Source of the DNA: Piedraia hortae CBS 480.64
Taxonomy: Eukaryota
NCBI GenBank assembly: GCA_010093745.1
Contig: MU006019.1
Span: 62,001-82,164, forward strand
DNA: 20,164 nucleotides
Direction: 5' to 3'
How positions within the stretch are numbered: the stretch's first letter is position 1; each line of letters starts with the position of its first letter. Below, piece by piece: positions 1-20,164 of the stretch. The translations under genes were made by a program, and so were the position numbers. A model generated the notes under the pieces. That model worked only from the letters and a program-made list of their open reading frames with translations. It ran no database searches and was not told the origin of the DNA.

Positions 1-101
1 GGAACCTACCGCACTGATCCTGTGTGCTTCGAGGATTGACAAGATCCAACATCACGGTGACACGTGTGAGTTGTACCTCACCTAGTATAACACTGCCTGC
101 G

Positions 102-1568
102 ATGACTCTTGCACTCAATGCACCTGACATACCTTCAGAGATCCTACTTGAAATCCTAGGAAATTTGAGGGATGATCGTGATGCATTGTGTCGAATCGTC
201 TTGGTCTGTAAAATCTGGGCAGATCTAGGCACAGAATTACTATGGCATGATGCCCCTGAAGACGCCTTCCAGCTCGTCTCTAGTGATCGAAAGCAATACT
301 ATGCCGACAAGGTCCAGGAGCTGGCAGTGTCTTCTCCCGTCTCGCTCCATCTCGAGGGACTTGCGTTTCCGCGTCTCAGACACCTCAGAGTGTCTCCTAA
401 CAGCCACAGGATCCCCGAAGGTGAAAGTTTGCCTTTTGAGCATTACGCCCAGCTCTTGATGCCGCAGCTGAAATCGCTGCATGTACGCTCCGGACGAGGG
501 AGGTGTCATTTTCTTTCGTATATACCTCTCAAGTGCCACAGCTTGCAGCAATTGAGGATCTATGGCTCAAGCAATTACTTGGTAGGTGATGACCTGCTAA
601 GATGTCTCGAACAGCTTCAAGATCTCCACACCCTGTGCCTCTCTTGGGATGATAGAGTGTATTCGTTTCCGTCAGGGAATGAACTGGTCATACACCTAGC
701 CCAGCGGCGCAAGCTGGTGATGCTTGAAATTGACTACAGTATCACCCTCGGCTCTCTAAAACTGCTCGTACCTCGCGCCGAGCCACTATTCTGCGATCTC
801 CAATCTCTGGAGATTATGCTGGATTCCAACGCAGTATCGACATTGGCCCAGCTCATGCCTGGTCTTGTTGAGCTCAAACTAACATTGAAGACCTGCGAAT
901 CAACATCGTTTCTCATTGGGATCGGTACTCATCTGACCAACCTTCGAGGCTTGAGCATCGCATTTCACATCGTGAGAAAACTCCAAAAGCGTGAAATTGT
1001 GTGTCTCGGATCTTTGACGTCGCTGAGGCGCTTGAGTTTGACCTACGACCACACCCTCAATTACGACATCGTCATAGCAATGGAACTAGATGAGTCCCTA
1101 GCAGAGCTTGACTTTAAATTGCTTTTCTCCAACCTTAGTCAGCTGCGAGAGTTTGTCTTCCACGCCAACACAGACTTGACGTTTGACATACTGAGAATGC
1201 TCGGGAAGCATTGTCGTAACCTCATGTATTGCGCAGTTCTTATGAAGGAGTTTGAACTCTTGACTCTGATGCTAGAACCGGTAGTGCTCTTTCCGAATCT
1301 AAAAGGACTTGAGATCGGAAATTGCTTATTTAAGGAAAGGCTCGGTGACTTCGCAACACAGCCCTTGACGGTCACAGCCATTCTTGCTCATTTGATGGAC
1401 ATGACCCTGAAGCATCATGCACCTAAGCTCGAAGATCTGGCATGTGCACTGATTCCAAGCGAAGTGTCACGGGCACTAACAACTTCATTCGAGGCACGTA
1501 CGAGGCCGTCATCACCTCTTCCGTCTTGGCGATATTGGCCAAAGCTGTCCCTGCTCGACAACCTCTAG
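102..1568 (+). CDS. F-box domain protein with C-terminal leucine-rich-repeat-like region (intronless, ~488 aa)
   Basis: Long uninterrupted ORF; first ATG at 102 (the track starts at GTG 24). N-terminal DIPSEILLEILGNL...ALCRIVLVCKIWADLGTELLW matches the F-box pattern (LP.EIL..I...L...L..V.K.W). It is followed by repeated LxxLxL units (FPRLRHLRV, LKSLHV, LQQLRI, LHTLCL, LQSLEI, LRGLSI, LRRLSL, FPNLKGLEI). Confidence 0.8.
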   Translation: MTLALNAPDIPSEILLEILGNLRDDRDALCRIVLVCKIWADLGTELLWHDAPEDAFQLVSSDRKQYYADKVQELAVSSPVSLHLEGLAFPRLRHLRVSPNSHRIPEGESLPFEHYAQLLMPQLKSLHVRSGRGRCHFLSYIPLKCHSLQQLRIYGSSNYLVGDDLLRCLEQLQDLHTLCLSWDDRVYSFPSGNELVIHLAQRRKLVMLEIDYSITLGSLKLLVPRAEPLFCDLQSLEIMLDSNAVSTLAQLMPGLVELKLTLKTCESTSFLIGIGTHLTNLRGLSIAFHIVRKLQKREIVCLGSLTSLRRLSLTYDHTLNYDIVIAMELDESLAELDFKLLFSNLSQLREFVFHANTDLTFDILRMLGKHCRNLMYCAVLMKEFELLTLMLEPVVLFPNLKGLEIGNCLFKERLGDFATQPLTVTAILAHLMDMTLKHHAPKLEDLACALIPSEVSRALTTSFEARTRPSSPLPSWRYWPKLSLLDNL

Positions 1569-2756: not shown

Positions 2757-3880
2757 ATGCGTTACTTCATCTCTGCCCTGGCCCTCAGCGGCTCTGCTTA
2801 TGCCTACATGGACAATGCGGCCAACTTCAACGCCGATACTGCTCCTTCATATGGCGTAGTCTCACAAATTTCTGACGGTAAGAGAATCTCGCGGCACAAA
2901 CGGTCCAAAATTTAACGTCTGTAGGCCAAGTCCAAGCACCCACCGGTGCTGCCTCTTCTGTACCTGCTGCGGTGCCTGCCTTGTCAAGTGCAGCGTCCAG
3001 TGCCGTCGCATCTGCTACGGGAGCCGCTTCCGGCAGTGCTTCCGCCGTTGCCTCCGCTGCGTCTGGTACTGCCTCTGGCGAAGGCGTCTCTGGAACTGGT
3101 GGTGCTACGGGTACGCATTCCTCAAGTGCCGAAGCTGGAGCTGGAGCTACTTCTGCGGCCGGTGCCGGTGCCGGGGCTGCTTCGTCTAGCGCAGCCGGCG
3201 CTGAGTCCTCGGCCTCTGCCGTCCCTCCTCTCTCCAGCGCTGCTGCCAGTGCAGCCTCGGGAGCTGGTGAACCCGCCACCGCGCCCGCTGTATCCAATGC
3301 GTCGAGCGCTCCCATTTCTGTCGCCTCCTCTTTGTCTGTTGTTGTGCCGGTACCGGTTACCACCAACAGTGCTGGCGGACTTGCCCCCGTTGGCTCAGGA
3401 GTTGGCGTTCCTGCCACTGTCGTGACTCCTGGAGCTTCCCCTACTTATGGTGCTGGCAACGGAACCGAAACTGGTGCTGGCGCTGGCTCTGGTGCTGGTG
3501 CGGCTGGTGCTAGCGGCTCCTCAGGTGCAGGTGCCGGCGTTGCTGGTACGACTGGCTCCTCGGGCACGGGTGCCGGTGCTGCTGGTGCTAGTGGTGCCTC
3601 CGGTGCGACCGGCAGCGGCGTTGCCGGTGGTGTGAGCACTGGCTCTGGGTCTTCCCCAACAACTCTCAGCTCTGCCGTTGGCTCTGGCGCTGGCTCCGAG
3701 TCTTCTGCCGCCGTCTCTGGTGCGGAAGGTTCATCTGAATCCGGCTCTGGTGGAGCTGCTGCCACGTCCAGCTCTGGTAGCGGTTCTCAGCAGTCTAGCA
3801 CCCCTACATCTGGTGCCAGCGCTCTCCGACTGACCAGCGGTCTCGCCCTTGTCGGCTTCTTCTTTGCACTCTTCGCTTAA
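2757..3880 (+). CDS. Secreted Ser/Ala/Gly-rich GPI-anchored cell wall protein with one Pir repeat; exons 2757-2877 and 2925-3880 (~358 aa)
   Basis: ATG 2757 opens a signal peptide (MRYFISALALSGSAYA). Removing the 47-nt intron 2878-2924 (GTAAGA...TTTAAC...TAG) gives VSQISDGQVQA (Pir repeat) in frame with the 2972..3880 ORF. The body is low-complexity S/A/G/T. The C-terminus SGASALRLTSGLALVGFFFALFA is a typical GPI signal. Confidence 0.88.
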
Positions 3881-4399
3881 GTTTCAAAAAGTGGGTGAAT
3901 AATTCATTGGAGTTCTGGGATTTGTATACGGACGCCCAGCGGCTCGTAGATAATGGGTGGCGTGACGAAATTACATAGCTCGTAGCTTTTAATCATTATG
4001 AACATCTTCATTATGCTCCTTCGGTCTGGTTGTTGTTGCCTTCGAGTGCTGGGTCGCTTCCGGGAATATGCAATCCTACAGTGCAGGGTCAGTAGACTGC
4101 AATGTTTTCTCACCAGACACCTCGTTGACAGTCTGCAGACGTGTTACAGAAGGCCATCCTTTTCGTGCCCAAGCATCTGTTGTTGAGTTTGTGAGAATAT
4201 CGGAACTTCCCGGGGACCGAGGCCAGATTTGTTCAAACAAGGCTGAAGCCATGATGGATGGTACTTATTATGTAGACCCGGGCTGATCCTCATCCAATCT
4301 TCAGTGCTCTCGCCATCCGTCAACCCAAAATTCCGTAGCCACTGGGGCATGAGCAACCAAGGCCGTTTGGCATAAGCAAATTCATACCTTAGCGCTGAA

Positions 4400-5980
4400 A
4401 TGGGAGTTACTTATGATGATAGTCCCGTCACTTCACTATCGACAGGCGCGCCGATTCCACTTTCCTCAGAAAAAGAGCTTGATGCAAGAGCGCGGCCTGC
4501 AGGGAACAGAGCAACTTCAGGTCTCATCCCTTTTCACTCGGTGCATACGGAATCCGCGGAAAAGGAAGCTCTCTACAACCCCATCTACCCGAATGGATAC
4601 CCTTACAATGGTCAACCACCAGATCAGCAAAGAAAGAAGAAACAGATATGCGGCATATCAAGGAAATTATGCCTAAGTTTGCTCCTTCTCTTATTGATAT
4701 TGATCGGACTCGGAGTAGGGTTGGGAGTAGGGCTAGGGACCAAGAAAAGTTCCGAGTCATCCACAAAGTCTTCGTCTGGATCGCCAGCTTCAACGCCCTC
4801 TGCTGGTACGGCATCTGTTTCATCTTCGCTATCCAGCTCAGCCTTGCCTACAGCAAAACGGTTTGATTGTGGGTCTAGGCCAGCTTCCTCACGGAAGGCC
4901 AAGAGCGGTACCGGAATTGCCTTTGCCTCTCAGCCTCAGGGCCAAGTGTCTTCTGATGGAAGCCAGACCGTTGCCAACTTGTACTATCAGAATTCAAACA
5001 GTAACGCTCTTCGTGCTCACCAGCTCTGGGGAAATGGATCCTGGACCGACAATGAAATCCCTATCGGTTCTTCTGCCATGTCGAAAACACCTCTGGCTGC
5101 AGTCTCGATTAAAGATAATGACACGGTGACCTGGAACTTATTCTGTAAGTAACGAATTCCCGGAAAGTGTTGACGATCATAACAATCAGCAGATGTTGAT
5201 GCTGGCAATTTCGTACAACATTTTTCCTACCAAGATCCAGGGTTCAAATCTCATTCCACGATTTATCTTGACTTCACGGCAAGAACTCAGGCATACACTG
5301 AGGGAAGAGCGGGCATCACAGTCTGCCCCATCTATTACAGCTTCGAGACGCTCAATGCCACTTTTTCATCCACATCCACAGACTCGCCTCTCGACAGACA
5401 AGGGATGGTTTTGTGGCATGGTACAAACTCAACAAGGTTTGTCCAGTGGTTATGGAGAACAGAAAGCGATGCGAAACCCACGTGGGGTCTTGAGACAGAT
5501 GCAGACGGATCATTCGTACAGAAAGGTATGGGATGCGCCAGCTCATTGAATAGTTCCATCACGGGCACCATGTTTGTGAACACAACATGGGATTGGTTTC
5601 AATTCTATTCCGAGGATATGAACAGCCAATTATTAGGCGTTCCAAACAATTGCGGGTACACCTCCTCAACGTATCTAGGCGAAGAATTTGTTAAAAACGA
5701 CGGCGAACTTTTCTACACGCAGAACAACGCCGGCATCATTAACGTTCATACTATTGTGAACGCTTGGGATTGCTCCAGTACCAAGCGTGATGGCAAAGTT
5801 TCTCAACTTGGGAGCCAGCCAGCAATAGCGGGAACTCGTCTGGATGCTACGACGGTATACAACGGTAGCGACGTGGGTGAGTCTGTCGTTGTCTTTCAGT
5901 CAAAGCAGGGCAACATTATCGGCTGCGAACGCGACAAGGAGGGCAATTGGTCGGGAGGTGCAGATGTTTTGCAGTGCTAG
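4400..5980 (+). CDS. Single-pass (type II) membrane protein, Ser/Thr stalk plus probable fucose-specific-lectin-like beta-propeller ectodomain, paralog A; exons 4400-5144 and 5193-5980 (~510 aa)
   Basis: KKKQICG followed by hydrophobic LLLLLLILIGLGVGLGVGLG. The 48-nt intron 5145-5192 (GTAAGT...TTGAC...CAG) joins WNLF to YVDAGNFVQHFSYQDPGF, open and in frame with the 5405..5980 ORF. Blade-like motifs are GTGIA, LYYQ, WxxGSW, TPLAAVS, GTRL and VVFQ...G.I...GNWS. The fold call is inference. Confidence 0.78.
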
Positions 5981-7051
5981 CTTTTATCTAAAGCTAGGAC
6001 ACCACGTGCGAATTCGAGAGGCATGCCTCTCTCATCATGCACGTTTGTAAGATCATGGAGTTTTCGGTGGGATTTTATGATGGTTGTCAGATGAAGATGG
6101 AACTGCTTCAAGTAAATAACTATCCGTATTGTCTAATAGGGCATCAAAAGTATGGTAAAGGGAAAGCTGGTATATGACATAACCTTCGTGTAATTTGAGT
6201 TGACGTGTGCCAAGATATTGTTTACCCGCACCCATTTTAGCTTTCACATCTTGTTACTATAGATTGTGCCTGAAATAGCGGGCGATGGCTATAGTTAGCT
6301 GCGGGGTCATATCCCGCCTTTGCACCCCAATCTAATAGGGCAATGTGACAAACACTTTCATAGCCGAGTTAGCGCACATTTTTGGCAGGCTTATGTCTAA
6401 AGCTTGACTTCTGAACACCCAGCAAAATTGCCTGTAGACATGGACCTCCCTCGCTTCTTCCACTTCGCAAACAATATCCATTTGGGGGGGTGTCATGTCT
6501 GTAGTCATCCGCAGCCAACCTTTTCTTTTTTACCCCTCATTTACGCGAATGCACAAAGATAGTAGCATGCAAATATGGCATCACGAGTATTGTTCACGTA
6601 CTACATATCCGCAATACTCGCTGTTCTTGCGTCGATGACCACCAAACTTGGTGGAAAACCGGCACTTCAAGTCCAGTTGATCGAGGCATAATGGAAGAGT
6701 TGCGGCTGCGTTATAGTATAAGTCACATCAACTGCGATGACTCACATTTAAGGCGGGGTTTGGAGAGCTCAGTGCAGTAGTGAACGCCAGTCATGCCTTC
6801 AAATCGACAAGGCTTAGACCCTATCACGTTGAAGACACTAAACCATCCAATAGCAAAATCCGAGTTATGTACTTCCATCAGCACATTCACCCGACTTGAG
6901 GGCTTCAGCCCCAAGATGTGCAGGAAGATATAATGCAGGGTCCAGATGCAAAGCTCAGCCTCATACCAAACCGGCGACAAGCTGCAGAAACAAGGCTTAA
7001 TAAAGGCCATGCTCACCTCTGATTCTCGACTTTTTCAGAACACAGTTGACA

Positions 7052-8578
7052 ATGGAATCCAGGTCATTAGTCAGTCCGGTCAGTTTTGAAAACCATGTCT
7101 CACGGCTTTCCTGTGATCGGGCCACAGGGAGCCCTGGGATGGAGGAATCTGTAGGCAGCCTTGGGCGGCCGACACAAGAGCCTGACGGATTAGAGTTGGA
7201 CAGCTCATCCGCGGGATTGATTCCTGTACACTCAAAGACATCCGAGGATCGGAAGGCGTTCCCTTACGAGCCAAATTCTGATCAAGAGCGAGCAAAGCTT
7301 TACACTTCCCCAAGGAAGAAAAGGATTTGTGGCTTGCCGAGACTTACGGTAATAGGCCTGCTCATACTACTGCTGTTAGGTATTGGGCTTGGTCTTGGGC
7401 TGGGTGTTGGATTAGGAAGAAGGAAACGCAAGTCCGACAAAGTGCTCAACTGCCCAAACCGAAATGCGCCTTCTTCCTTAAATGCCCTGGTCGGTACAGG
7501 GCTCGCATTTGCCGCTCGACCTAAACGGCTGCCTTGTACCTCCAAGAAATGCACAGTGGCAAACCTGTACTATCAGGAACCAGCTCAAAACAAGATTCGC
7601 GTACATCAACTCTGGGGAGATGGGTCTTGGACCGATAAAGAGCTGCCGACCAGTTTCGTTCCCATGTCAAAAACACCGCTATCTGTAGTATCACTTACAA
7701 TTGACCAGGATCTGACATGGCTTGTGATGTGTAAGTTTGGCTCAACACCTAACTCCCTCGAGTGATGATGACACTGACCGGAGAATGAATATATAGTCAT
7801 TGACGAGGATAATCACGTTACCTCCTTCACCTACCAAGACCCGGATTTCGAAGAGCAAGTTACCCTGCACATCGAACCCTCGAACGGACTTTCCCCATAC
7901 AATACCGATAAGCCCGCTAGCTTCCAAGCATGCCCCTATTACTATGATTCTCGAACTATCGGCGGTACTCCGCCGAAGGATTACACACCTGTTACAAATG
8001 AAACCGGTGCAATAATATGGTACCCTACCAGTGCGACTACATATACTTATCTTATGAACAACGCTTTGGGCTGGTCACAAGAAGGGCACGTCAACAATAC
8101 ACCCACAAACAAAGGTGTATATTGCCACAGCAGCGAGTACAGCTCGAAATTTCATGTCATGTTCGTGAACACCACTACAGTGAGCAATGATACATACGAA
8201 GTCTACACAATGGATACGCTCTCAGATGATCCCTTGCAAACGTGTCCATATGGTTACACTATACCCCACAACTCGACCTTTCTGAGCAGCGACGGTGTTT
8301 ACTTTTACTTTCAGGCGCAAGCTGGGTTTGAAGAAGGGATTTATGTACACAACAGTACATCGCTGTGGAGTTGCAAAAATACGGGACATCGAGACACGAC
8401 TTGGCGGAAGATATCTCGTGGACTGTCCGGAACGCGTCTGGGCAGTGCAATCATTCATGGCAAAGACGACAAGGAAACTCATGTCATTGCTTTTCAAAAT
8501 GCGTCTGGAGAGATCATTGGCTATGAGATCTCTGAGGGCAATATCTGGTCGGAGAGTGTCAACTTGTTATCTTGTTGA
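7052..8578 (+). CDS. Single-pass membrane protein with probable lectin-like beta-propeller ectodomain, paralog B; exons 7052-7730 and 7797-8578 (~486 aa)
   Basis: RKKRICG followed by TM (LLILLLLGIGLGLGLGVGLG). The 66-nt intron 7731-7796 (GTAAGT...ACTGAC...TAG) has the same position and phase as in paralog A and gives WLVMFIDEDNHVTSFTYQDPDF, in frame with the 8054..8578 ORF. It shares TVANLYYQ, HQLWG.GSWTD, MSKTPL, YQDP, MFVNTT and GTRL with paralog A. Confidence 0.78.
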
Positions 8579-9451: not shown

Positions 9452-9533
9452 GCAGCTATTACCATAGTTGGGCCTTTTTTGGCTGCTAATTCCATAGCTA
9501 GGCGCTTTTTTGGCAGTTAGTCCATAGCTGGGC
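9452..9533. repeat. Degenerate 30-bp tandem repeat, ~2.7 copies
   Basis: Units: accatagttgggccttttttggctgctaat (9461-9490), tccatagctaggcgcttttttggcagttag (9491-9520) and partial tccatagctgggc (9521-9533). They are preceded by a partial unit end, gcagctatt (9452-9460). Confidence 0.8.
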
Positions 9534-9561
9534 ACGCGCTGCTCGATTGCTGTGCGTCATA

Positions 9562-10137
9562 ATGTCCGACGAACAGCTCAGCACCCGCAACGATCAGCTC
9601 TGCATCGAGATCTTTCAACGAGGCATCGCGATAAACAATTACAATTTCCTACACTTTGGGCCCAAGCTTTTCCATTGGGCAATCTTGTTGCGACCAAAGC
9701 CGGATGTGCATCTAGACAAAAGTCTGGCTATTGATGTCGATAATGGGCCCTGGACCACTTCAGACGGGACCAGAGAACCAAATGAAACAAAGATATGGAA
9801 TTTCAGAACGCGCAGGCCGGTAGATCCACTTAAATCGAAAAGTTTCCACGCTGCTGTGGCCATCGGAAAACTCCCGCCAGGGACTGGGGAAGATGATGTT
9901 GTGGAGATTCTGCGCCATATTCCACTGCCCCGTCCCGGTAACTTTGACGATTCAAATTGCCATACTTGGTTGATGCTTGCCATTGAGAAGCTGCAGGCAG
10001 AAAAGGTAGTGTCAAAAGCCTGCAGCGCTGGGGAAATCATCGAGATGGTAACTAGAGAAGGACTTCGTCTGCAGAGCGACGAAGCAGAACGCAACGCACA
10101 ACAAAGATTCTTGATTCACCCAAAACTTTATAGCTAG
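9562..10137 (+). CDS. Fungal hypothetical protein (~191 aa) with HW...NC motif, possible permuted papain-like/NlpC-P60-type fold
   Basis: Intronless ORF from ATG 9562. It looks globular, with FHWAILL, AVAIGKL, LRHIPLP and SNCHTWLMLAIEKL, a pattern common in small fungal hypothetical proteins. Confidence 0.7.
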   Translation: MSDEQLSTRNDQLCIEIFQRGIAINNYNFLHFGPKLFHWAILLRPKPDVHLDKSLAIDVDNGPWTTSDGTREPNETKIWNFRTRRPVDPLKSKSFHAAVAIGKLPPGTGEDDVVEILRHIPLPRPGNFDDSNCHTWLMLAIEKLQAEKVVSKACSAGEIIEMVTREGLRLQSDEAERNAQQRFLIHPKLYS

Positions 10138-10574: not shown

Positions 10575-12215
10575 ATGGACACACTTCAAGACACGGACTG
10601 GGACCTCGTAATCTCTGGAACAGGAGTCCCCCAGTCTCTGCTCGCACTGTAAGCATTTTGTGTCTTCTGTCATTGGCTATTAAAGTACGCAAGTGCTCTC
10701 TCTCGCCGCGGACTCAGGATATTGCATCTTGACCGCAACCCTTACTACGGCCAGAATGAAGCTGCCTTGACGCTGAACGAGGCCCAAGAATGGGCACAGA
10801 GACACACTTGTGACAACTTCTCGCCCTTTACCCAAGCTTCGGTTTCCACACCGGCGACAGACGGCAAGCTTGGTTCTTCTCGCGCCTATGCCTTGGCACT
10901 GGCACCGCAGTTCGTCTACTCGTGGTCCCAGCTGGTACCGGCCCTAATCAGCTCTCAAACGCACAATCATCTGGAGTTTCAAGCTGTTGGGTCTTGGTTC
11001 ACTTTGCCAAAGTCTGGGTCGAGCCTTCTGCACGTGCCCAATGGTAGAGAGGACATTTTTCAAGACGAGTCGCTAAACCTGCGCACTAAACGATCTCTGG
11101 TAAAGTTTCTGCGCTACGTTGCCGACTACGAGGGCCAAGGAGATTGGTCGGAGAAGAAAGGCAGAAGCTTCGTGGAGGAGCTCAGCGAATCGTTTGGCTT
11201 ATCCGATGTCTCGTACAGTCCCCTCTTGGCTCTTGCCCTGAGTTCTGAGCCTGCACATGACACCACATTTGGCTCCATCATCCCCAAGATTGCTTGTCAT
11301 ATACGCAGCATGGGCGCCTTTGGAGCTGGCTTTGCTGCCGTGATGCCTAAATGGGGCGGTTTGGCGGAATTGGCCCAAGTTGCATGTCGAGCTTGTGCCG
11401 TTGGTGGTGGGGTTTATGTCCTGAACAGGGGAATTGAGTCGGCCACGCAACTGTCTACCGGGCAGCTCTCGCTGGAGCTTGCGGGTGGTGATAGAGTGAC
11501 GACCAAGTGGCTGGTTGGCTCATCAGCAGACATGCCGCAAGAACTTCAACCCCAAGGCGAAACCATCAGCACAGCCGACTACGCCAAGAGCATTTGCATC
11601 GTCTCCTCGCCGCTGCCTACATTGTTTCCACCGACATCCGATGGTGTTGTGCCTGCCGGGGCCGTTGTGTACGTCGAGACTGAAAGGGCGCCAGTTCGCA
11701 TTCTCGCACACTCCGGTGAAGCGGGCGAATGTCCCTCTACTCAATGTAAGTGTCTTCAAATTTCCGTGGTGAAATGATGATCACAATATTGAATACTTAT
11801 CTACATTGTCTGAACGATAATGACGATGAAATCTCTGACAAGCTGAACATCACCTGGACACACTATGTAAGCAGTGGAAGAATGAACGGTGCTGACAGGA
11901 TTAGGCGTCCTATATGCTTCTACCTTGGCTGAAGACGGGTTTGAAGTTCTCGAACAGGCTGTGCAATGGTTACTTGCAAGCCTCAATGAGCAGGCTGAGG
12001 TTCTGTGGAAGGTGCAATACCGGCATTGTGGTGCGACATTAGCAGCTCCAACTTTCGGGGACGGCGTATGCTTGCTGCCAACTGTATCACCCGACGTTAC
12101 GTTTGATGATAAAGTTCTGGATCAAGTCAAGGCTGCTTGGCTCCGAGTGAGTGGGGAAGACGAGGAAATGTTTATGCAGCTGGAGGCTCGGCAGGATAAT
12201 GTGGCAGAAGGCTGA
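10575..12215 (+). CDS. MRS6: Rab proteins geranylgeranyltransferase component A / Rab escort protein (GDI/REP family); exons 10575-10648, 10694-11745, 11905-12215 (~478 aa)
   Basis: Spliced N-terminus MDTLQDTDWDLVISGTGVPQSLLALALSRRGLRILHLDRNPYYG is the GDI/REP signature. Other motifs are HLEFQAVG, VPNGREDIF, KRSLVKFL, WGGLAELAQVACRACAVGGGVYVL and GECP..QCVLYAS. Introns are 10649-10693 (GTAAGC...AAG) and 11746-11904 (GTAAGT...GCTGAC...TAG), and both restore frame. Confidence 0.9.
11770..11842 (+). ncRNA. snR62: Intronic box C/D snoRNA, snR62/U34(SNORD34)-like, guiding 2'-O-methylation of a U in LSU rRNA
   Basis: Box C ATGATGA 11774-11780; guide CTTATCTACATTGT 11796-11809; box D' CTGA 11810-11813; C'-like ATGACGA 11820-11826; box D CTGA 11835-11838. 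The guide is complementary to the conserved LSU rRNA segment ACAAUGUAGAUAAG (recalled). The D'+5 rule points to the U, the site modified by yeast snR62 and human U34. The host intron is about three times longer than its neighbours. Confidence 0.82.
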
Positions 12216-12482
12216 ACGACGAGCGGTGGTGTAGGTACAGTAGGCTGTCACCGTTTGCTCGGCGTTCGGGTCCCGAACGGACCATACGATAGCCAAGTGA
12301 ATAACCCGAACAACCCGAACAGACGCAGGCTCGGATCCGAGCGAACAATCCATCCTGTTTTGGCTCCTTCGGGGATTTTGAAACTGCACGTCCGTTTATC
12401 AACGACGTCATAAGGGTTTTCAGCATAATCGCTGCATTCGGTCATATTCTTCGCAAATCCCTAACACCAGACCTACGACATC

Positions 12483-15400
12483 ATGTCCGCGTTGAAAAAG
12501 GCTTTGAGTCTCCGTAAGCCGCGTAAACATGAGGCCGACGGCGAAGGGGCCAAGAGTCCGCCGCTGAATGCGCGAGAAACCCGCCTCTCGTCGCTGACGG
12601 GCGCCAACTTGCTGGGACGCGCCAGCATGGACAGCTACTCGTCAGACCCGCACCACCCGTCCAAGGATGTCCACGGTCGCACCGTCAAGGACCACAGCCG
12701 CACCCACAGTCCGCTGGCCTTTCTCCGCCGCAAAGTGCGCCGCGACTCGGAGTCGTCCTTTTCTTCAACTGAGGACATGATGCTTGACCAGAACGGCCGG
12801 GTTATGAACCCGAGCCAGCAACACAAGCAGGAGATGCAGGCGGAGAAGGAGAAACACCGCAAGGAGGCAGCCGAGCGCATGGCGGCGGACAGACAGAGAA
12901 AGGAGGACATGATGAAGCGTGCAGAGCTGGAGGAACCGCCGGAGCAAAAGGCAAAGTACGGCACGCTGCCACCCAACTCTTATGCCGGCACTCCACGCGC
13001 CGACCCCCGCATTGACATCCGCTCCCTGACTCCCACCATGGCTGGCCAGGTGGTTAGCTTCCGTGCACGTATCCATAACCTGCGCAAGATGAGCGCACAC
13101 ATGATGTTCATAGAGTTCCGCCAGCACATGGCCACCATACAGGGCGTGCTGCTGGAACATGCCAATATCTCGCAGTTTTTCCTTTACTGGGCCGAGCATC
13201 TGCACGTCGAGAGCGTGGTCCATGTAATTGGAGTGGTGCAGGAGCCCAAGACAAAGCAGGGCGAAGTGCGCGGCACGACGATACACAATATTGAGATTCA
13301 CATCCATGACATGCACGTCGAGGCCGAGCCGTCGGTTCCCCTCCCGTTTACCGTACATGAGGCCGAAGTGACCAAGGCAGAAGCCGACAGGGAGGGAGAT
13401 TCACGCCACTGTCTCTCGGACCGCGCGCGGCAGACGAGCCGCATCCTAGACCTCCGGACTCAGGCATCCCAGGGCATCTTCCGCATTCAATCAGGCATCT
13501 GCCAAGCTTTTCGCGCACATTTACACGAGCTTGGCTTCATTGAAATCCACACTCCAAAGCTGCAGGGTGCGGCGTCAGAGTCTGGTGCAAGCGTCTTCAA
13601 GGTGGAATACTTTGGACGACCAGCGTTTCTGGCACAGTCGCCGCAGTTGGGTAAGCAGATGGCCATCGCTGCGGATATGCGCCGAGTGTTTGAAATTGGT
13701 CCCGTCTTCCGTGCAGAGAACAGCAATACGCATCGCCATTTGACCGAGTTCACTGGTCTGGACTTGGAAATGGCCATTGACGAGCATTATCACGAGATCC
13801 TTCGCGTCTTGGACAGCACCTTCAAGGCCATCTTCAGCTTCATCTACACCCGCTACCAGCCAGAAATTGCGGCGGTCAAGCGGCAATTCCCCCATGATGA
13901 CCTGGTGTGGCTGGAAAAGACTCCGGTCATTCCCTTTGCAGAGGCTATCCGCATGCTGAACGAGACGGGCTGGACCGATGAGGATGGGAAGCCGCTCTCG
14001 GAGAATGAAGACCTAGGCACGCGTGACGAGATTCAGCTGGGCACAGTCATCAAGGAGCGGCTGGGAACCGATTACTATGTCTTGGACAAGTTCCCGACCT
14101 CTGCCCGCCCCTTCTATGCCATGCCTGATCCCAACGATCCCAAGGTGACCAACTCATTTGATATTTTTGTCCGCGGCCAGGAAATTCTCTCTGGTGGTCA
14201 GCGCATTCACGACGCCAATATGCTGAAGGCGAAGATGGAGAGCTTGAAGATGGATCCTTCTACTTTGGAGGAATACGTGGAGGGCTTTGAATGGGGAGCT
14301 CCTCCCCACGGCGGCGGCGGCATTGGTCTGGAGCGTATCCTGATGCTTATGCTGAAGCTGAACGACATTCGCCAGGCATCAATGTTCATGCGTGATCCGC
14401 GCTCGCTGCCTTACACGCCCCCAACACGGCAACTGCGTCACCCTGAAGCCAGCACTCTGCATCCGCCGTGGGAAAAGGACCCGGAAGGTGAACACGAGAT
14501 GCAGCCGATTGAGAAGCTCATTGCCAACTACGGAGACGCTTCCAATACGTCGTGGTTGGAACCGCGTTTCGAGACTTGGCGTGATAGACATACGGGGGCC
14601 GCTGTGGGATACGTGCCCCATCAGGGCTACGCAATCATCATCGGTGATCCGCTGTGCCACTCGACTCAGCTAGGCAAGACGATTGGCGGCTTCCTAAGGT
14701 TTGTAAAGAAGGAGCTGCACCTGAAGCCGCTGTGGCTGCTCTGTAACCATAAGGTGGAGGAGTTGCTCGGCGACAGACACGACTGGCGCACGTTTTCGGT
14801 CGTGGCAGAGCAGCGAATCGATCTGGTAGACAATGTCGCGGGACGGGACAAGGAGCTTGAGCGCAAATGTCGCCATGCGGAGAAGGAGGGCATCAAAATC
14901 CACACCGTGCCCCTGGGCTCGGAAATGTCGCCCGAAGTGCGGAAGCAGATTGACGTTCGCGTGCAAGACTGGCTGAGGAACCGAAAAGGCAAACAGGTGC
15001 ATTTGACAGACGTCCATCCGTGGCAGGATATGCCTCACCGAACCTATCACTACAGCGTCACACCAGACGGCACCATTGCCGGGCTCATAATCATGGCCCA
15101 GCTCTCGCCTGAGAACGGTTTGCAGGTCAAGTTCTCACTAGACTTTCCTGGCGCGCCGTCTGGTGCCATAGAATATCTTGTCGTGCATGCATTGAGACAG
15201 GCTTCGGCCGCGGGTGAGACGCGAGTCACGTTCGGCGCGGGAGCAACGGGCAATTTTACCGTTGGACGCAATATGAAGGGTGCTCGGGTGCGCGTGCTGA
15301 CCAGGGCTTACCTCGCCATTGCGTCGGAGCTGAAGCTCACCAACAAGAGCGAGTTTAGGCAGAAGCTGGGAGCCAAGGAGGATCCGGTTTACAGTGAGTT

Positions 15401-15531
15401 TTGGCGATCCGTTTGGTTTATAGCAAAAGCTAACAGGAACAGTCTGCTATCCTCCACGAGGCTTGGGGGCGGGGGGGGTAAGGGCCATCATGTCCTTCTT
15501 CGAGGACGGCGACGGGAACAGCACAGTCTAG
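12483..15531 (+). CDS. erdS: Ergosteryl-3beta-O-L-aspartate synthase: aspartyl-tRNA synthetase fused to a C-terminal DUF2156 (MprF/aaPGS-like) transferase domain; exons 12483-15393 and 15443-15531 (~999 aa)
   Basis: It has an OB-fold anticodon domain (VSFRARIHNLR...FIEFRQ) and class IIb AspRS motifs (FIEIHTPKL, LAQSPQL.KQ, GPVFRAENSNTHRHLTEFTGLDLEM, GQEILSGGQRIH, PPHGGGGIGLER, RDPR). A further ~330-aa domain carries LIANYGDASNTSW, IIGDPLC, WL..RKG.Q, PGAPSGAIEYLV, VTFG and K.EFRQKLG. The 49-nt intron 15394-15442 (GTGAGT...GCTAAC...CAG) gives the ending VYICYPPRGLGAGGVRAIMSFFEDGDGNSTV* and removes the overlap with the convergent gene. Confidence 0.92.
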
Positions 15532-15575
15532 AGACCTTTGCGGGTTACTCAACGTTTTTCTCAAATGACATGAAC

Positions 15576-16742
15576 TCAAGTACTAATTCTATCCAGAGCT
15601 TGCTGGACATCTTTGACCAGGTCTTGTCCGTCTTCGATTCCACATGAGAGACGGACGAGGTTATCGTAGACGCCAGAAGCCTCACGAGCTTCCACCGGAA
15701 TGCCCATGTGTGTCATAGCAGCCGGGACTTCGCAGAGAGACTCGATGCCACCCAGAGACTCGGCCAGTATGAAGATTTTGGTGGACTGGCAGAATTTGTG
15801 AGCCGCCTCTTTTCCGGCTTTTAGGCGGAAAGAGAGCATGCCGCCTCCGAGGCCGTCTCTGTGCTGTGCCTTGACCAATTCCCGCTGCGGGTGAGTCTCT
15901 AAACCAGGGTAGTTGACAAGGGCTACGTGCGGATTGTTCTGCAATGCCTTTGCGACCAAAGCAGCGTTTGCGCTGGCCTCACGCGCGCGCAGGTGCAACG
16001 TTTTGAGACCTCTGTGGGCGAGCCAGCAGTCGAACGGCGAGGGAACAGCACCAATCGCGTTTTGCAAAAACGCTAGTTTTTTATGCAAGACATCACTGTT
16101 GTAGGCCGCAACACCCATGCAAACATCCGAATGGCCGTTAATGTATTTTGTGACTGAGTGCGTAACGATATCCGCGCCAAGAACCAGCGGATTTTGAATG
16201 TAAGGTGAGAGGAAAGTATTGTCTACGACGACGATGATGCCCCTTCCATGTGCAATCTGGCAGACTGCACGAATGTCGACGAGGCCCAAGGTCGGATTGG
16301 ACGGAGTCTCGATCCAGACCATTTTTGTCTCTGGCCGGAGAAGCTCCGCCAACTCCGATCCGATGGCTTTGCTAAAAGTCACATTCACATTATGCGCCGA
16401 GGCTACTTGGGTGAAGTAGCGGTGAGTACCGCCGTAGACGTCCGCTATGGACACCACGTGGCTGTTTGGAGGCAGACTCTGGAGGATAATAGCCGTTGCT
16501 GCGGAACCAGAGGAGAAAGCGGACGCGTATTTTGCCTTTTCCAACACCGCGATGCTCGCTTCGAACGCACTCCGGTTCGGGTTTGAAGACCGTGTGTACT
16601 CAAACGCCCCTACAGGTTGACCAACGGCCGTCTGGGCAAAGGTAGTGCTGAGGCATATGGAAGGAATCACAGCGCCAGTCACCCGATCAGGCTCTGATCC
16701 GGCGTGCACCGCTTGTGTGCCGAAACCGTCCCCGTCCACCAT
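15576..16742 (-). CDS. CYS3: Cystathionine gamma-lyase (Cys/Met metabolism PLP-dependent enzyme), 388 aa, intronless
   Basis: GFGTQAVHAG, LSTTFAQ, YTRSSNPNR, FSSGSAAT, DVYGGT.RYF, WIETPSNPTL, VVDNTF, HSVTKYINGHSD (PLP lysine), LAESLGGIESL..VPA.MTH, LVRLSCGIED. Confidence 0.95.
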   Translation of the reverse strand: MVDGDGFGTQAVHAGSEPDRVTGAVIPSICLSTTFAQTAVGQPVGAFEYTRSSNPNRSAFEASIAVLEKAKYASAFSSGSAATAIILQSLPPNSHVVSIADVYGGTHRYFTQVASAHNVNVTFSKAIGSELAELLRPETKMVWIETPSNPTLGLVDIRAVCQIAHGRGIIVVVDNTFLSPYIQNPLVLGADIVTHSVTKYINGHSDVCMGVAAYNSDVLHKKLAFLQNAIGAVPSPFDCWLAHRGLKTLHLRAREASANAALVAKALQNNPHVALVNYPGLETHPQRELVKAQHRDGLGGGMLSFRLKAGKEAAHKFCQSTKIFILAESLGGIESLCEVPAAMTHMGIPVEAREASGVYDNLVRLSCGIEDGQDLVKDVQQALDRIST

Positions 16743-16852
16743 TTCAAATTCCTGATGGACTAGGGCAGAGGGGATGGAGATGGCTGACCTGAAGGAGCCT
16801 AGCGCCGGCTGAGGCAGTCCTCGGGCTAGCCACCAGTCGTTGCGACACCCAC

Positions 16853-16979
16853 AACGTGCCCAAACGTCCGATGCTGATTGGCCGAAATCGACAACCGATA
16901 AACACGACCTAGGTTAAACAATGGATATTTTTTTTCCAAAAACTCCCGTCCAGTGACTGCAAGATCAGCTCCCACGTGC
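16853..16979. promoter_or_regulatory. Divergent promoter elements: Pho4/NUC-1/PalcA-type E-boxes and a CCAAT box
   Basis: CCCACGTGC at 16971-16979 (reverse complement GCACGTGGG), AACGTGC at 16853-16859 (reverse complement GCACGTT) and ATTGG at 16877-16881. All lie in the 339-bp gap upstream of a phosphate-transporter-family gene. Confidence 0.5.
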
Positions 16980-17081
16980 ATTGTGTGAGGCGCGCCTCAG
17001 GCGTACCGATAGGTTCCTCCCTCCCTTCAAATTGCTGCAGCTTCTTGCACAAACCTGCAACCTGCAGATTGGAGGCAAACC

Positions 17082-19025
17082 ATGAATAGTTCTATGCGTG
17101 ACTATGGCCTCGCTGCCCCCCATGGACCAAACCTCACGGGCGGCCATGTTGCCACGGCCAGCCTGGCGGATATGTCGCCCGGCGAGGAGTCGGGTTTCCG
17201 TCAGATCTTGCAGCCAAACGACAGTTATGACGAGACGGGCACGTATTGGGCCGATATGGGACTGATGAGACGCGCCAAATTCACAACAAAAGTCGACTCC
17301 AAAGAGGCGGCTGCTGAGCTCAGATCGATTGGGCAGATGATGAAGAGAGATCCCCTCAGCCCGGTTTCCTACTACTTCCGCAACATGGTCCTGCCCGGCA
17401 TGGGCCTCTTGCTCGAAGGATATGTCCTTTTTTCGATCGGTATCCTCGAGTCTCTGTACAAAGCGGCATATCCCGAGTGCTGGGACAAGCACAAGGTGTG
17501 TGACAAGCAGTGGACGCAGGCCGTTGTCTACATGGAAATCGTCGGCATCATGGTAGGCCAGATCCTCGTCGGCTTCGTTGGTGACTGGATGGGTCGTCGT
17601 TGGGGTCTCATCCAGGATGCCGTCATCATGTTCCTTGGACTGATTCTGCTCATTTCTGCCTGGGCGAGCACGCTTCAGGGCTGGGTTATTTTTTACGCCT
17701 GGGCCCTGTTCTTCTACAGCATCGGTGTTGGTGGCGAGTATCCTATGACGGCCACGTCTGGCATGGAAAACGCCGTTGGGTCTGGCAAGATTTCGACGCG
17801 CGAGGACCGCCTGCACCGTGGCCGCAAGGTCGTCTCTGCTTTCCTCATGCAGGGCTGGGCGCAGTTGCTGAACCAGGCCGTGCTCATCATCCTCCTCCTC
17901 ATCTTCAACCACGGTGGTTCTCCCCCTTACAGCCGCCAGACAGTGCAGCTCACCTACCGCGTCTCGTTTGCGTTCCCGGCCATTGGCACCCTCTGGCTCA
18001 TCTACTACCGTACGTGGAAGATGAAGTCTGCGTCCAAGCAACTGGAAATCGCCAAGCGGAAGCAGCACGTTACCGGCTACGATGCAACCTCCCTGAAACT
18101 CGTCTTCACCAAGTTCGGCGGGCGCGTCATCGCCACTGCCTTTGCGTGGTTTGCCAACGACGTCTTCTTCTACGGCAACAAGCTCTTCCAGGCGCAGTTC
18201 ATCGCCGCTCTCTACCCTGGCTCTCACTCCGTCATGGTCTCCTGGTCGTGGAACATGGTCAACTGCGTCGTCAGTCTGGCGGGCTACTATCTCGCCTCTT
18301 TCCTGATCGACAACAAACTGTACGGCCGCAAATGGATGCAAATGGTCGGCTTCCTAGGCGATTTCATCTGCTTCATCATCCCGGCCTACAACTACGACTA
18401 CTACGCCAAGGGCCCCGGCGTTCACTCCTTCATGGCAATGTACTTCATCTCTTCCTTTTTCAACCAATTCGGGCCCAACTGCGTCAGCTTCCTCGTCGCG
18501 GCAGAAGTCTTCCCCACCCCTGTCCGCGCCACAGCCCACGGCTTCGGCGCCGCGGCAGGAAAAGCGGGTGCCCTCCTCGCCGCCGTCCTCTACAACTACA
18601 TCGACATCCGCATGCGGTACAAGGTCGTCCCGTGGTTCGGTCTCGCCGGAGCCCTCGTCACCTGGATCTGGCTCCCTGACACTACCGGTCTCGACCTCAA
18701 GGAACAAGAACGTCGCTGGAACTATATCCGCCAAGGCAGGGAGAAGGAATACCATGGTGTTGCCGTCCATCCGAAACATCTCTCCCTCTGGGAGCGCATG
18801 CGCGGGGTCGGGAAGCAGTATAACCCCCAGCTCGACTATGAGCAGCGTCTTGAGGAGCTCAGGGGTGATTGGGAGGAGTCGATGAGGAGACGCGCGCAGG
18901 AGAAGGGTGCGTTTGAAGAGGATGGCGAGGATGATTGGTCTTCGGAGGTTAGCCAGTTTTTTGAACGCACGAGAAATGTCCATCCCCAAGGACGGAGCGT
19001 TATGAGTGATGAGAAGGTGGAATAA
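17082..19025 (+). CDS. MFS transporter of the phosphate:H+ symporter (Pho84/Git1-like) family, 647 aa, intronless
   Basis: About 12 hydrophobic segments; GMGLLLEGYVLFSIG, GQILVGFVGDWMGRR (MFS motif A), GVGGEYP (PHS signature), RG..V..AFLMQGW, WFANDVFFYG, GRKWMQ.VGF, FNQFGPN..SF..AAEVFPT.VRAT.HG..AA.GK.GA. Confidence 0.9.
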   Translation: MNSSMRDYGLAAPHGPNLTGGHVATASLADMSPGEESGFRQILQPNDSYDETGTYWADMGLMRRAKFTTKVDSKEAAAELRSIGQMMKRDPLSPVSYYFRNMVLPGMGLLLEGYVLFSIGILESLYKAAYPECWDKHKVCDKQWTQAVVYMEIVGIMVGQILVGFVGDWMGRRWGLIQDAVIMFLGLILLISAWASTLQGWVIFYAWALFFYSIGVGGEYPMTATSGMENAVGSGKISTREDRLHRGRKVVSAFLMQGWAQLLNQAVLIILLLIFNHGGSPPYSRQTVQLTYRVSFAFPAIGTLWLIYYRTWKMKSASKQLEIAKRKQHVTGYDATSLKLVFTKFGGRVIATAFAWFANDVFFYGNKLFQAQFIAALYPGSHSVMVSWSWNMVNCVVSLAGYYLASFLIDNKLYGRKWMQMVGFLGDFICFIIPAYNYDYYAKGPGVHSFMAMYFISSFFNQFGPNCVSFLVAAEVFPTPVRATAHGFGAAAGKAGALLAAVLYNYIDIRMRYKVVPWFGLAGALVTWIWLPDTTGLDLKEQERRWNYIRQGREKEYHGVAVHPKHLSLWERMRGVGKQYNPQLDYEQRLEELRGDWEESMRRRAQEKGAFEEDGEDDWSSEVSQFFERTRNVHPQGRSVMSDEKVE

Positions 19026-19437: not shown

Positions 19438-20164
19438 ATGTCCCCCCAAGGACCAACCCTCGAATCCCTAATCCAATCATCCATCTCCGCAAAATCAAAA
19501 GCTTACTGTACCTCCCCCCAACAATCCAATCCTCCCTCGGGGTTCTCCATCTACCCTCACAACTAACAATTACCAGGCCCCTACTCGAAATATAGAGTCG
19601 GCTGTGCAATCCTCATCGATCTGAACGGAAAAAAGGAGGTAGTGATAGGTGCGAATGTGGAGAATGCGTCTTATCCTGTTGGGACGTGTGCGGAGCGTGT
19701 AGCCTTGGGGGCGGGAGTGGTGAATTTTGGGGTGAGGGGGCCCTGGGGTGAGGGACAGGGAAGACAAGGGGAGGAGATGGGGGCAAATGGGGACAAAGAG
19801 GGAGGTGAGTTCATTTTTCTTTTTTTCTCTTCTTTTCTTTGGATAAGTTGGGGGGTGGGAAGGTACGGAGAGGGGTAGGGAGGAAACACTCACCCCTACC
19901 TCGACAGATGGAGAGCGAGGAAAAAGTCATGATCTTACGGAGATACGGGTGAAGCAAGTTCGAGTTTCAGAGGAATATTCACTGAAGCACAAACCTTGAA
20001 TTTTAAGAGGGATTCGATTGACGGTTTTCTAAGGGACAGTCGAAGCCATCGCCATATCCTCTGACTCGGAGGTTCCGGCTTCGCCATGTGGGATGTGTAG
20101 ACAGTTTTTGAGGGAGTTTTGCGATGTACGTTCAACATTTTTCACAACCCGCCCTTTGCTTTTT
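19438..20164 (+). CDS. CDD1: Cytidine deaminase (homotetrameric CDA type), multi-exon, 3' end beyond window; exons 19438-19507, 19577-19804 (or -19747), 20034 (or 20040)-20125
   Basis: MSPQ...AKSKAY plus intron 19508-19576 (GTACCT...ACTAAC...CAG) gives AYCPYSKYRVGCAIL...GANVENASYPVGTCAERVAL. A downstream exon missed by the ORF track encodes VEAIAISSDSEVPASPCGMCRQFLREFCD, followed by donor GTACGT at 20126. Both Zn motifs (CAE and PCxxC) are present. The intron 2 boundaries are uncertain. Confidence 0.88.

Follow-up and report, generated by a model that had tools for sequence, protein, structure and literature searches.

The stretch of Piedraia hortae CBS 480.64 analysed here (20,164 nucleotides (nt) of contig MU006019.1, positions 62,001 to 82,164; hereafter the window) holds, at positions 12483-15531 of the forward strand, a real, intact and probably expressed gene for ergosteryl-3beta-O-L-aspartate synthase (ErdS). 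Judging from the sequence, we put the probability that this gene encodes an ErdS orthologue at roughly 93%. The predicted protein is an aspartyl-tRNA synthetase (AspRS) that continues in frame into a DUF2156 domain. No other eukaryotic system is known to divert an aminoacyl-tRNA into lipid modification, and ErdS is under discussion as an antifungal target. The system has already been described, and this copy is nothing new in kind. The same had been said in an earlier note made from the letters of the window alone, and it agrees with our assignment of the gene as an orthologue of the described enzyme. What is new is modest: the family gains one more member, mis-annotated in public records and here given a corrected start, whose tRNA-clamp motif is degenerate and to which no erdH is linked.

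The earlier note had placed the gene between 12483 and 15531. In the open reading frame (ORF) reading of the window, a frame of 1054 codons runs without a stop from the ATG at 12483 to 15647. Position 15531 is not the end of this frame, and an end at that coordinate implies an intron. Once 49 nt are removed, translation ends at a TAG at 15529-15531 and the spliced product comprises 999 amino acids (aa), which confirms the proposed boundaries to the nucleotide. The gene model reads as follows.

12483..15393 (+): erdS exon 1, codons 1-970 and base 1 of codon 971; open frame with an orthologue-like start
15394..15442 (+): erdS intron, 49 nt, phase 1, GTGAGT...CTAAC...CAG
15443..15531 (+): erdS exon 2, the last 29 codons with codon 971 completed; TAG at 15529-15531; tail identical to that of the public protein P0002

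The intron carries GT..AG ends, a CTAAC branch site and a closing CAG at 15442. Three independent lines back the two-exon model. The public protein P0002 has the same C-terminal junction and tail as our spliced product. In an alignment of 25 sequences (the 999-aa protein and 24 relatives), 19 of the 24 relatives carry on after the conserved ...EDPxY into the exon 2 peptide (xCYPPHGLG...FFED); the gene calls of the other five run into the intron at precisely this point. Finally, the public run X1 contains one contig in which 15393 is followed directly by 15443; exactly 15394-15442 is skipped, with GT..AG at the skipped ends. From the contigs of this run we used only the 49-nt joint and left depths aside. 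Since the type of the run is only guessed to be RNA, we read the joint as probable splicing and not as proof.

The domains of the encoded protein and two elements within them are located as follows, with ATT standing for the aminoacyl-tRNA transferase domain.

12483..13022 (+): long basic N-terminal extension, residues 1-180, with a composition high in R, K, S and E
12804..12932 (+): putative tRNA-elbow-clamping helix pair, residues 108-150, aligned to Aspergillus fumigatus ErdS 59-102 (HMMER alignment)
13053..13316 (+): OB-fold anticodon-binding domain, residues 191-278 (tRNA_anti-codon PF01336, E 1.3e-6)
13422..14393 (+): class II AspRS core, residues 314-637 (tRNA-synt_2 PF00152, E 8.7e-72)
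14529..15531 (+): ATT domain (aminoacyl-tRNA transferase, DUF2156, predicted double GNAT), residues ~683-999, interrupted by the intron (ATT alignment to 9W9F)
14862..14876 (+): basic patch of the alpha(+) helix, R794, K795, R797 and H798, equivalent to A. fumigatus R749, K750, R752 and R753
15000..15002 (+): codon of H840, which aligns with A. fumigatus H795, the proposed general base

According to Pfam, the OB fold, the AspRS core and the DUF2156 domain lie on one polypeptide in one frame, with the AspRS N-terminal. The DUF2156 match (LPG_synthase_C, PF09924) covers residues 698-943 with an E-value of 1.1e-14, within residues ~670-999, where the earlier note had predicted this domain. Matches with such low Pfam E-values are not to be expected by chance. 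In the AspRS core, which includes columns invariant among 25 aligned sequences, motif 1 reads IEIHTPKL, motif 2 FRAENSNTHRH and motif 3 GGGGIGLER; the QSPQ loop is present as well. The C-terminal domain would adopt a double-GNAT fold, as suggested by its high-scoring alignment to a solved ATT domain.

A sequence search of the PDB returned 70 matches at E <= 0.001. The three best are 9w9f, 9w9e and 9w9g (1071, 1060 and 1047 bits), in which residues 83-970 of our query align with 35-925 of the chain. These entries are cryo-electron microscopy structures of A. fumigatus ErdS, namely the tetramer (9W9E), the enzyme with tRNA on the AspRS (9W9F) and with tRNA on the ATT domain (9W9G) (PMC13219428). 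The next matches are yeast AspRS 1ASY (433 bits) and human AspRS. Taken alone, the AspRS domain scores 661 bits against ErdS, 435 against yeast AspRS 1ASY and 427 against human cytosolic AspRS. The claim that the gene is an erdS is supported by an alignment of 1071 bits to the solved enzyme, and also by the functional residues that have been tested in that enzyme. The index of the PDB chain equals the numbering of PMC13219428, because R749, K750, R752, R753, W785 and H795 fall at their published places; the published functional residues can therefore be mapped onto the 999-aa protein. We mapped them through the printed alignment and then checked each in the translation of the window.

To weaken the AspRS site, the 9W9G variant carries changes at nine residues: Q334, S335, N362, S363, N364, H366, R367, H368 and Y494 (PMC13219428). 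All nine positions are wild type in the P. hortae protein (Q385, S386, N413, S414, N415, H417, R418, H419 and Y545). This observation, together with the PF00152 match, bears out the claim that the AspRS has intact catalytic motifs. In the CCA pocket of the ATT domain, activity is reduced on mutation of W785, R789, K790, G791, Q793, H795, F913 or K916 (PMC13219428), and all eight residues are identical here (W830, R834, K835, G836, Q838, H840, F958 and K961). H795 has been proposed as the general base and R914 as the residue that stabilises the ester carbonyl (PMC13219428). This proposed oxyanion arginine is kept as R959, which brings the identities at the CCA pocket and R914 to 9 of 9. The positively charged alpha(+) helix between GNAT I and GNAT II retains R794, K795 and R797, and at its fourth basic position H798 stands in place of R753. 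Among the 25 aligned sequences K795, R797 and H798 are invariant, and R794 belongs to the nearly invariant positions (at least 90%). For the sterol pocket, 16 residues have been proposed; mutation had an effect at S644, W645, D647, Q836 and K838, and only slight or non-significant effects at the other 11 (PMC13219428). Four of the five effect-bearing residues are identical here (S690, W691, Q881 and K883), and D647 is replaced by E693. Over the whole pocket, nine of the 16 proposed residues match A. fumigatus.

The mechanism of ErdS has been drawn from the A. fumigatus enzyme (PMC7334510, PMC13219428). From the conserved sequence we infer that each of its steps would apply to the P. hortae protein. 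The enzyme, as a dimer, would hold tRNA-Asp with its OB-fold domain and its basic N-terminal helices, and the AspRS core would charge it with Asp at the expense of ATP to give Asp-tRNA-Asp. In the next step, the acceptor end would move ~23 angstroms to reach the DUF2156/ATT domain of the other subunit. At this site the 3beta-OH of ergosterol would lose its proton to H840, the ester carbonyl would be stabilised by R959, and Asp would be transferred to the 3beta-OH to form ergosteryl-aspartate (Erg-Asp). By analogy to A. fumigatus, P. hortae may be expected to contain this enzymatic activity and its product. All fungi with ErdS that have been examined are stated to possess a separate canonical AspRS as well (PMC7334510, PMC13219428). 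On the strength of this statement, P. hortae presumably has a separate housekeeping AspRS as well.

The public record of this protein differs from our model in name and in start. A search with the ATT region matched 929 fused-length proteins (533-1698 aa) out of 4974 candidates at E <= 0.001, and the 120 best matches listed of these 929 all contain both PF09924 and PF00152. The top match, P0002, is 100% identical, 882 aa long and named 'aspartyl-tRNA synthetase [Piedraia hortae CBS 480.64]'. Only three of the same 120 carry the name ergosteryl-3beta-O-L-aspartate synthase. In view of these two facts, the earlier note was right to expect that annotation would call the gene just an aspartate-tRNA ligase; the public name hides the ErdS function. 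The next matches, at 60-73% identity, are from Dothideomycetes including Lecanosticta, Teratosphaeria, Zasmidium, Cercospora, Hortaea and Zymoseptoria. One further entry, P0065, is a 1380-aa protein labelled Quercus suber that contains the alpha/beta-hydrolase domains PF00561, PF12697 and PF12146 besides those of ErdS; a fungal contaminant with a merged gene model is the probable explanation. Among the matches listed in our literature search, no paper pairs 'Piedraia hortae' with 'ErdS' or 'ergosteryl'. The words 'Piedraia', 'Dothideomycetes' and 'Zymoseptoria' do not occur in the supplement of PMC7334510, nor does 'Piedraia' occur in the main text of PMC8913301.

P0002 corresponds exactly to the C-terminal 882 residues of the 999-aa model. 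It starts at M118 (nt 12834) and lacks the 117 residues before it. Translation from the ATG at 12483 gives MSALKKAL..., which matches the MSxLKKAL starts of orthologues, and the N-terminus is conserved in the 24 relatives. M118 falls within the tRNA-clamping N-terminal helix stretch (the equivalent of A. fumigatus 59-102), and N-terminal truncations of A. fumigatus ErdS by 30 to 84 residues reduce Erg-Asp synthesis 12- to 18-fold (PMC13219428). For these reasons, the public 882-aa model very probably omits a functional part of the enzyme.

Beyond the guessed nature of run X1, several observations weigh against this assignment. The first concern the N-terminal helix that clamps the tRNA elbow, which in ErdS carries an xSKxxLKKxx motif, with M. 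oryzae as a natural exception (PMC13219428). P. hortae has a basic helix-like stretch here, but the motif is degenerate: it reads MNPSQQHKQE, and K115 is the only one of the defined motif residues that is kept. The motif serine, invariant in the other 24 sequences, is N109 (S109N), and the next position, which is basic (R or K) throughout the 24 relatives, holds P110. Two of the ten tRNA-contact residues are identical to A. fumigatus (K65 as K115, E81 as E131), in a region where the alignment is less certain. At columns that are invariant in the 24 relatives, the protein makes 14 unique departures, the second highest number among the 25 sequences. All residues for which strong effects have been reported are spared by these 14. 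Seven of the 16 residues proposed for the A. fumigatus sterol pocket are replaced here (T641S, S642N, D647E, N677D, E712K, C728V and E798D); six of these changes are at positions of slight or non-significant effect (PMC13219428), and the seventh is the change of D647 to E. Finally, erdH does not adjoin the gene, as PF07859 is found in none of the 129 window ORFs of at least 60 aa outside erdS.

With its degenerate clamp and no linked erdH, the P. hortae enzyme is a natural variant on which the 'entrapped tRNA' model could be tested. Because the clamp is degenerate (R or K to P110, S to N109), this ErdS could hold tRNA-Asp more weakly and release Asp-tRNA-Asp, which would then feed both translation and sterol aspartylation; Erg-Asp would accumulate without turnover, ErdH perhaps having been lost. 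We regard this loosened ErdS as an unlikely, speculative variant. A rival explanation of very low probability is that the protein is a housekeeping cytosolic AspRS with a C-terminal appendage, serving translation mainly or also. Its AspRS core is indeed fully intact, A. fumigatus ErdS weakly replaces yeast AspRS and does so better with a shortened N-terminal helix (PMC13219428), and the degenerate clamp could favour release of Asp-tRNA-Asp. This explanation is difficult to reconcile with the AspRS domain being far closer to ErdS than to the yeast or human cytosolic enzymes, and with the separate canonical AspRS reported for the ErdS-bearing fungi. The catalytic residues of the ATT domain are conserved, and a lipid function is therefore favoured over a role in translation.

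The departures in the sterol pocket raise the question as to whether the transferase has shifted to another acceptor, for example a different sterol or lipid. In addition to the seven unlike residues, H878N and W880L adjoin the essential Q881, and both are unique among the 25 sequences. A section heading in PMC13219428 describes sterol aspartylation by ErdS as highly promiscuous. Nevertheless, the residues with the strongest effects are all kept, and the equivalents of 878 and 880 are F and M in A. fumigatus but H and W in Dothideomycete-like relatives, from which we conclude that these positions vary within active ErdS. We therefore hold a change of acceptor to be very improbable. Decay or inactivity of this copy, or the misreading of two adjacent genes as one, is scarcely credible. 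The relatively many lineage-specific substitutions (14) could be read as decay, but 970 codons run on without a stop across the domain boundaries, one solved chain aligns with the protein from end to end, the catalytic residues that we checked are all intact, and the X1 contig carries the intron-free junction.

In A. fumigatus, A. oryzae, Neurospora crassa and 'most' species examined, erdH, which codes for an alpha/beta-hydrolase of family PF07859, lies divergently beside erdS; this adjacency is typical and not obligatory, as some species are marked interspaced (PMC7334510). A tblastn search of the window with three ErdH-like ORFs from related loci also found no erdH (best E 0.71). Of 18 metagenome loci with ErdS relatives, six (L011, L013, L014, L015, L017 and L024) have an ErdH-like sequence upstream of the ErdS gene, on the other strand, and the ErdS proteins of these six loci are 50-55% identical to that of P. 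hortae. No ErdH-like sequence was found at the other 12 loci within upstream spans of 10 kb for L004, L009 and L016 and of 0.2-2.7 kb for the rest; these 12 include the ten nearest relatives (L001-L010, 55-70% identity). The lack of a linked erdH looks like a trait of the lineage and not like an oddity of this species. At L004:7988-8692, an Abhydrolase_1 ORF stands just upstream of erdS on the same strand; it belongs to a hydrolase family other than that of ErdH.

Compared to A. fumigatus ErdS (AFUA_1g02570; PMC7334510, PMC13219428), the P. hortae protein has the same order of N-terminal extension, OB fold, AspRS core and ATT domain, and the checked AspRS, CCA-pocket and proposed catalytic residues are all identical. 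It differs in an N-terminus that is longer by ~48 residues, a shorter and divergent linker between AspRS and ATT, the degenerate xSKxxLKKxx motif, the change of R753 to H and the lack of a divergently adjacent erdH. The ErdS proteins of Dothideomycetes (for example P0007 from Lecanosticta acicola, P0058 from Zymoseptoria tritici and P0029 from Hortaea werneckii) are 60-73% identical over 970 residues. They share the start, the C-terminal peptide that flanks the intron and the H at the fourth alpha(+) position, whereas P. hortae alone has the 14 private substitutions, including S109N, as well as P110.

The bacterial MprF/aminoacyl-phosphatidylglycerol synthases represent the same Pfam family, PF09924, as the C-terminal domain of the P. 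hortae protein, and MprF and ErdS both use an aminoacyl-tRNA donor (PMC7334510). In contrast to MprF, ErdS modifies a sterol instead of a glycerolipid, has no membrane flippase domain and is fused to its own aminoacyl-tRNA synthetase. No MprF chain is among the best 60 of the 70 PDB matches. ErgS, a free-standing fungal DUF2156 protein that makes ergosteryl-glycine, belongs to the same transferase family and uses the same sterol acceptor; it lacks a fused synthetase and depends on Gly-tRNA-Gly, unlike the P. hortae protein with its fused AspRS (PMC8913301). No second PF09924 ORF was found among the 129 window ORFs outside 12400-15700. The yeast enzyme Dps1 (PDB 1ASY/1ASZ), which gave the 435 bits over the AspRS domain, is identical in motif 2 (FRAENSNTHRH) and in the core of motif 3 (GGGIGLER), but like other canonical cytosolic AspRS it has no DUF2156 domain.

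On the upstream side, the place usually held by a divergent erdH (PMC7334510) is taken by a GDI-family gene at 10653-12215 (+) (PF00996, E 7e-24; similar to Rab GDI and Rab escort protein) with an apparent intron near 11777-11886. This gene shares the strand of erdS, and 267 nt separate its end from the erdS ATG. Downstream, a gene for a Cys/Met-metabolism pyridoxal phosphate (PLP) enzyme lies convergently at 15576-16913 (-) (PF01053, E 5.7e-137). Its stop and the TAG of erdS are 44 nt apart, and the 3' untranslated regions of the two genes must therefore overlap. One X1 contig, 2697 nt in length, extends from the 3' end of erdS over the gap, at least to 15800. The neighbours (GDI-family protein, Cys/Met PLP enzyme, sugar transporter and DUF6914 protein) have no match at E <= 1e-5 in the 18 related metagenome loci, and no tRNA genes were found in the window. 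Four other genes were recognised.

18-1568 (+): F-box-like protein
9502-10137 (+): DUF6914/DUF6540 protein
17013-19025 (+): sugar-transporter-family (major facilitator superfamily, MFS) protein
19567-19875 (+): cytidine/dCMP deaminase fragment

We know of no link between any of these four and the ErdS pathway. Two tandem paralogues at 4376-5980 and 7004-8578 (+), apparently of two exons each, have no Pfam matches. In both, a membrane-spanning stretch is rich in Leu and Gly and the C-terminal part contains Cys; their first exons are 38% identical (E 1.8e-27) and their second exons 29% (E 1.5e-29). A frame of 332 codons at 2882-3880 (+), also without Pfam matches, encodes a low-complexity sequence rich in Ser, Ala, Gly and Thr and lies in the kilobase with the highest GC content in the window (0.62, AT skew -0.34). 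It ends in a hydrophobic tail, which we take to resemble that of glycosylphosphatidylinositol-anchored fungal wall proteins.

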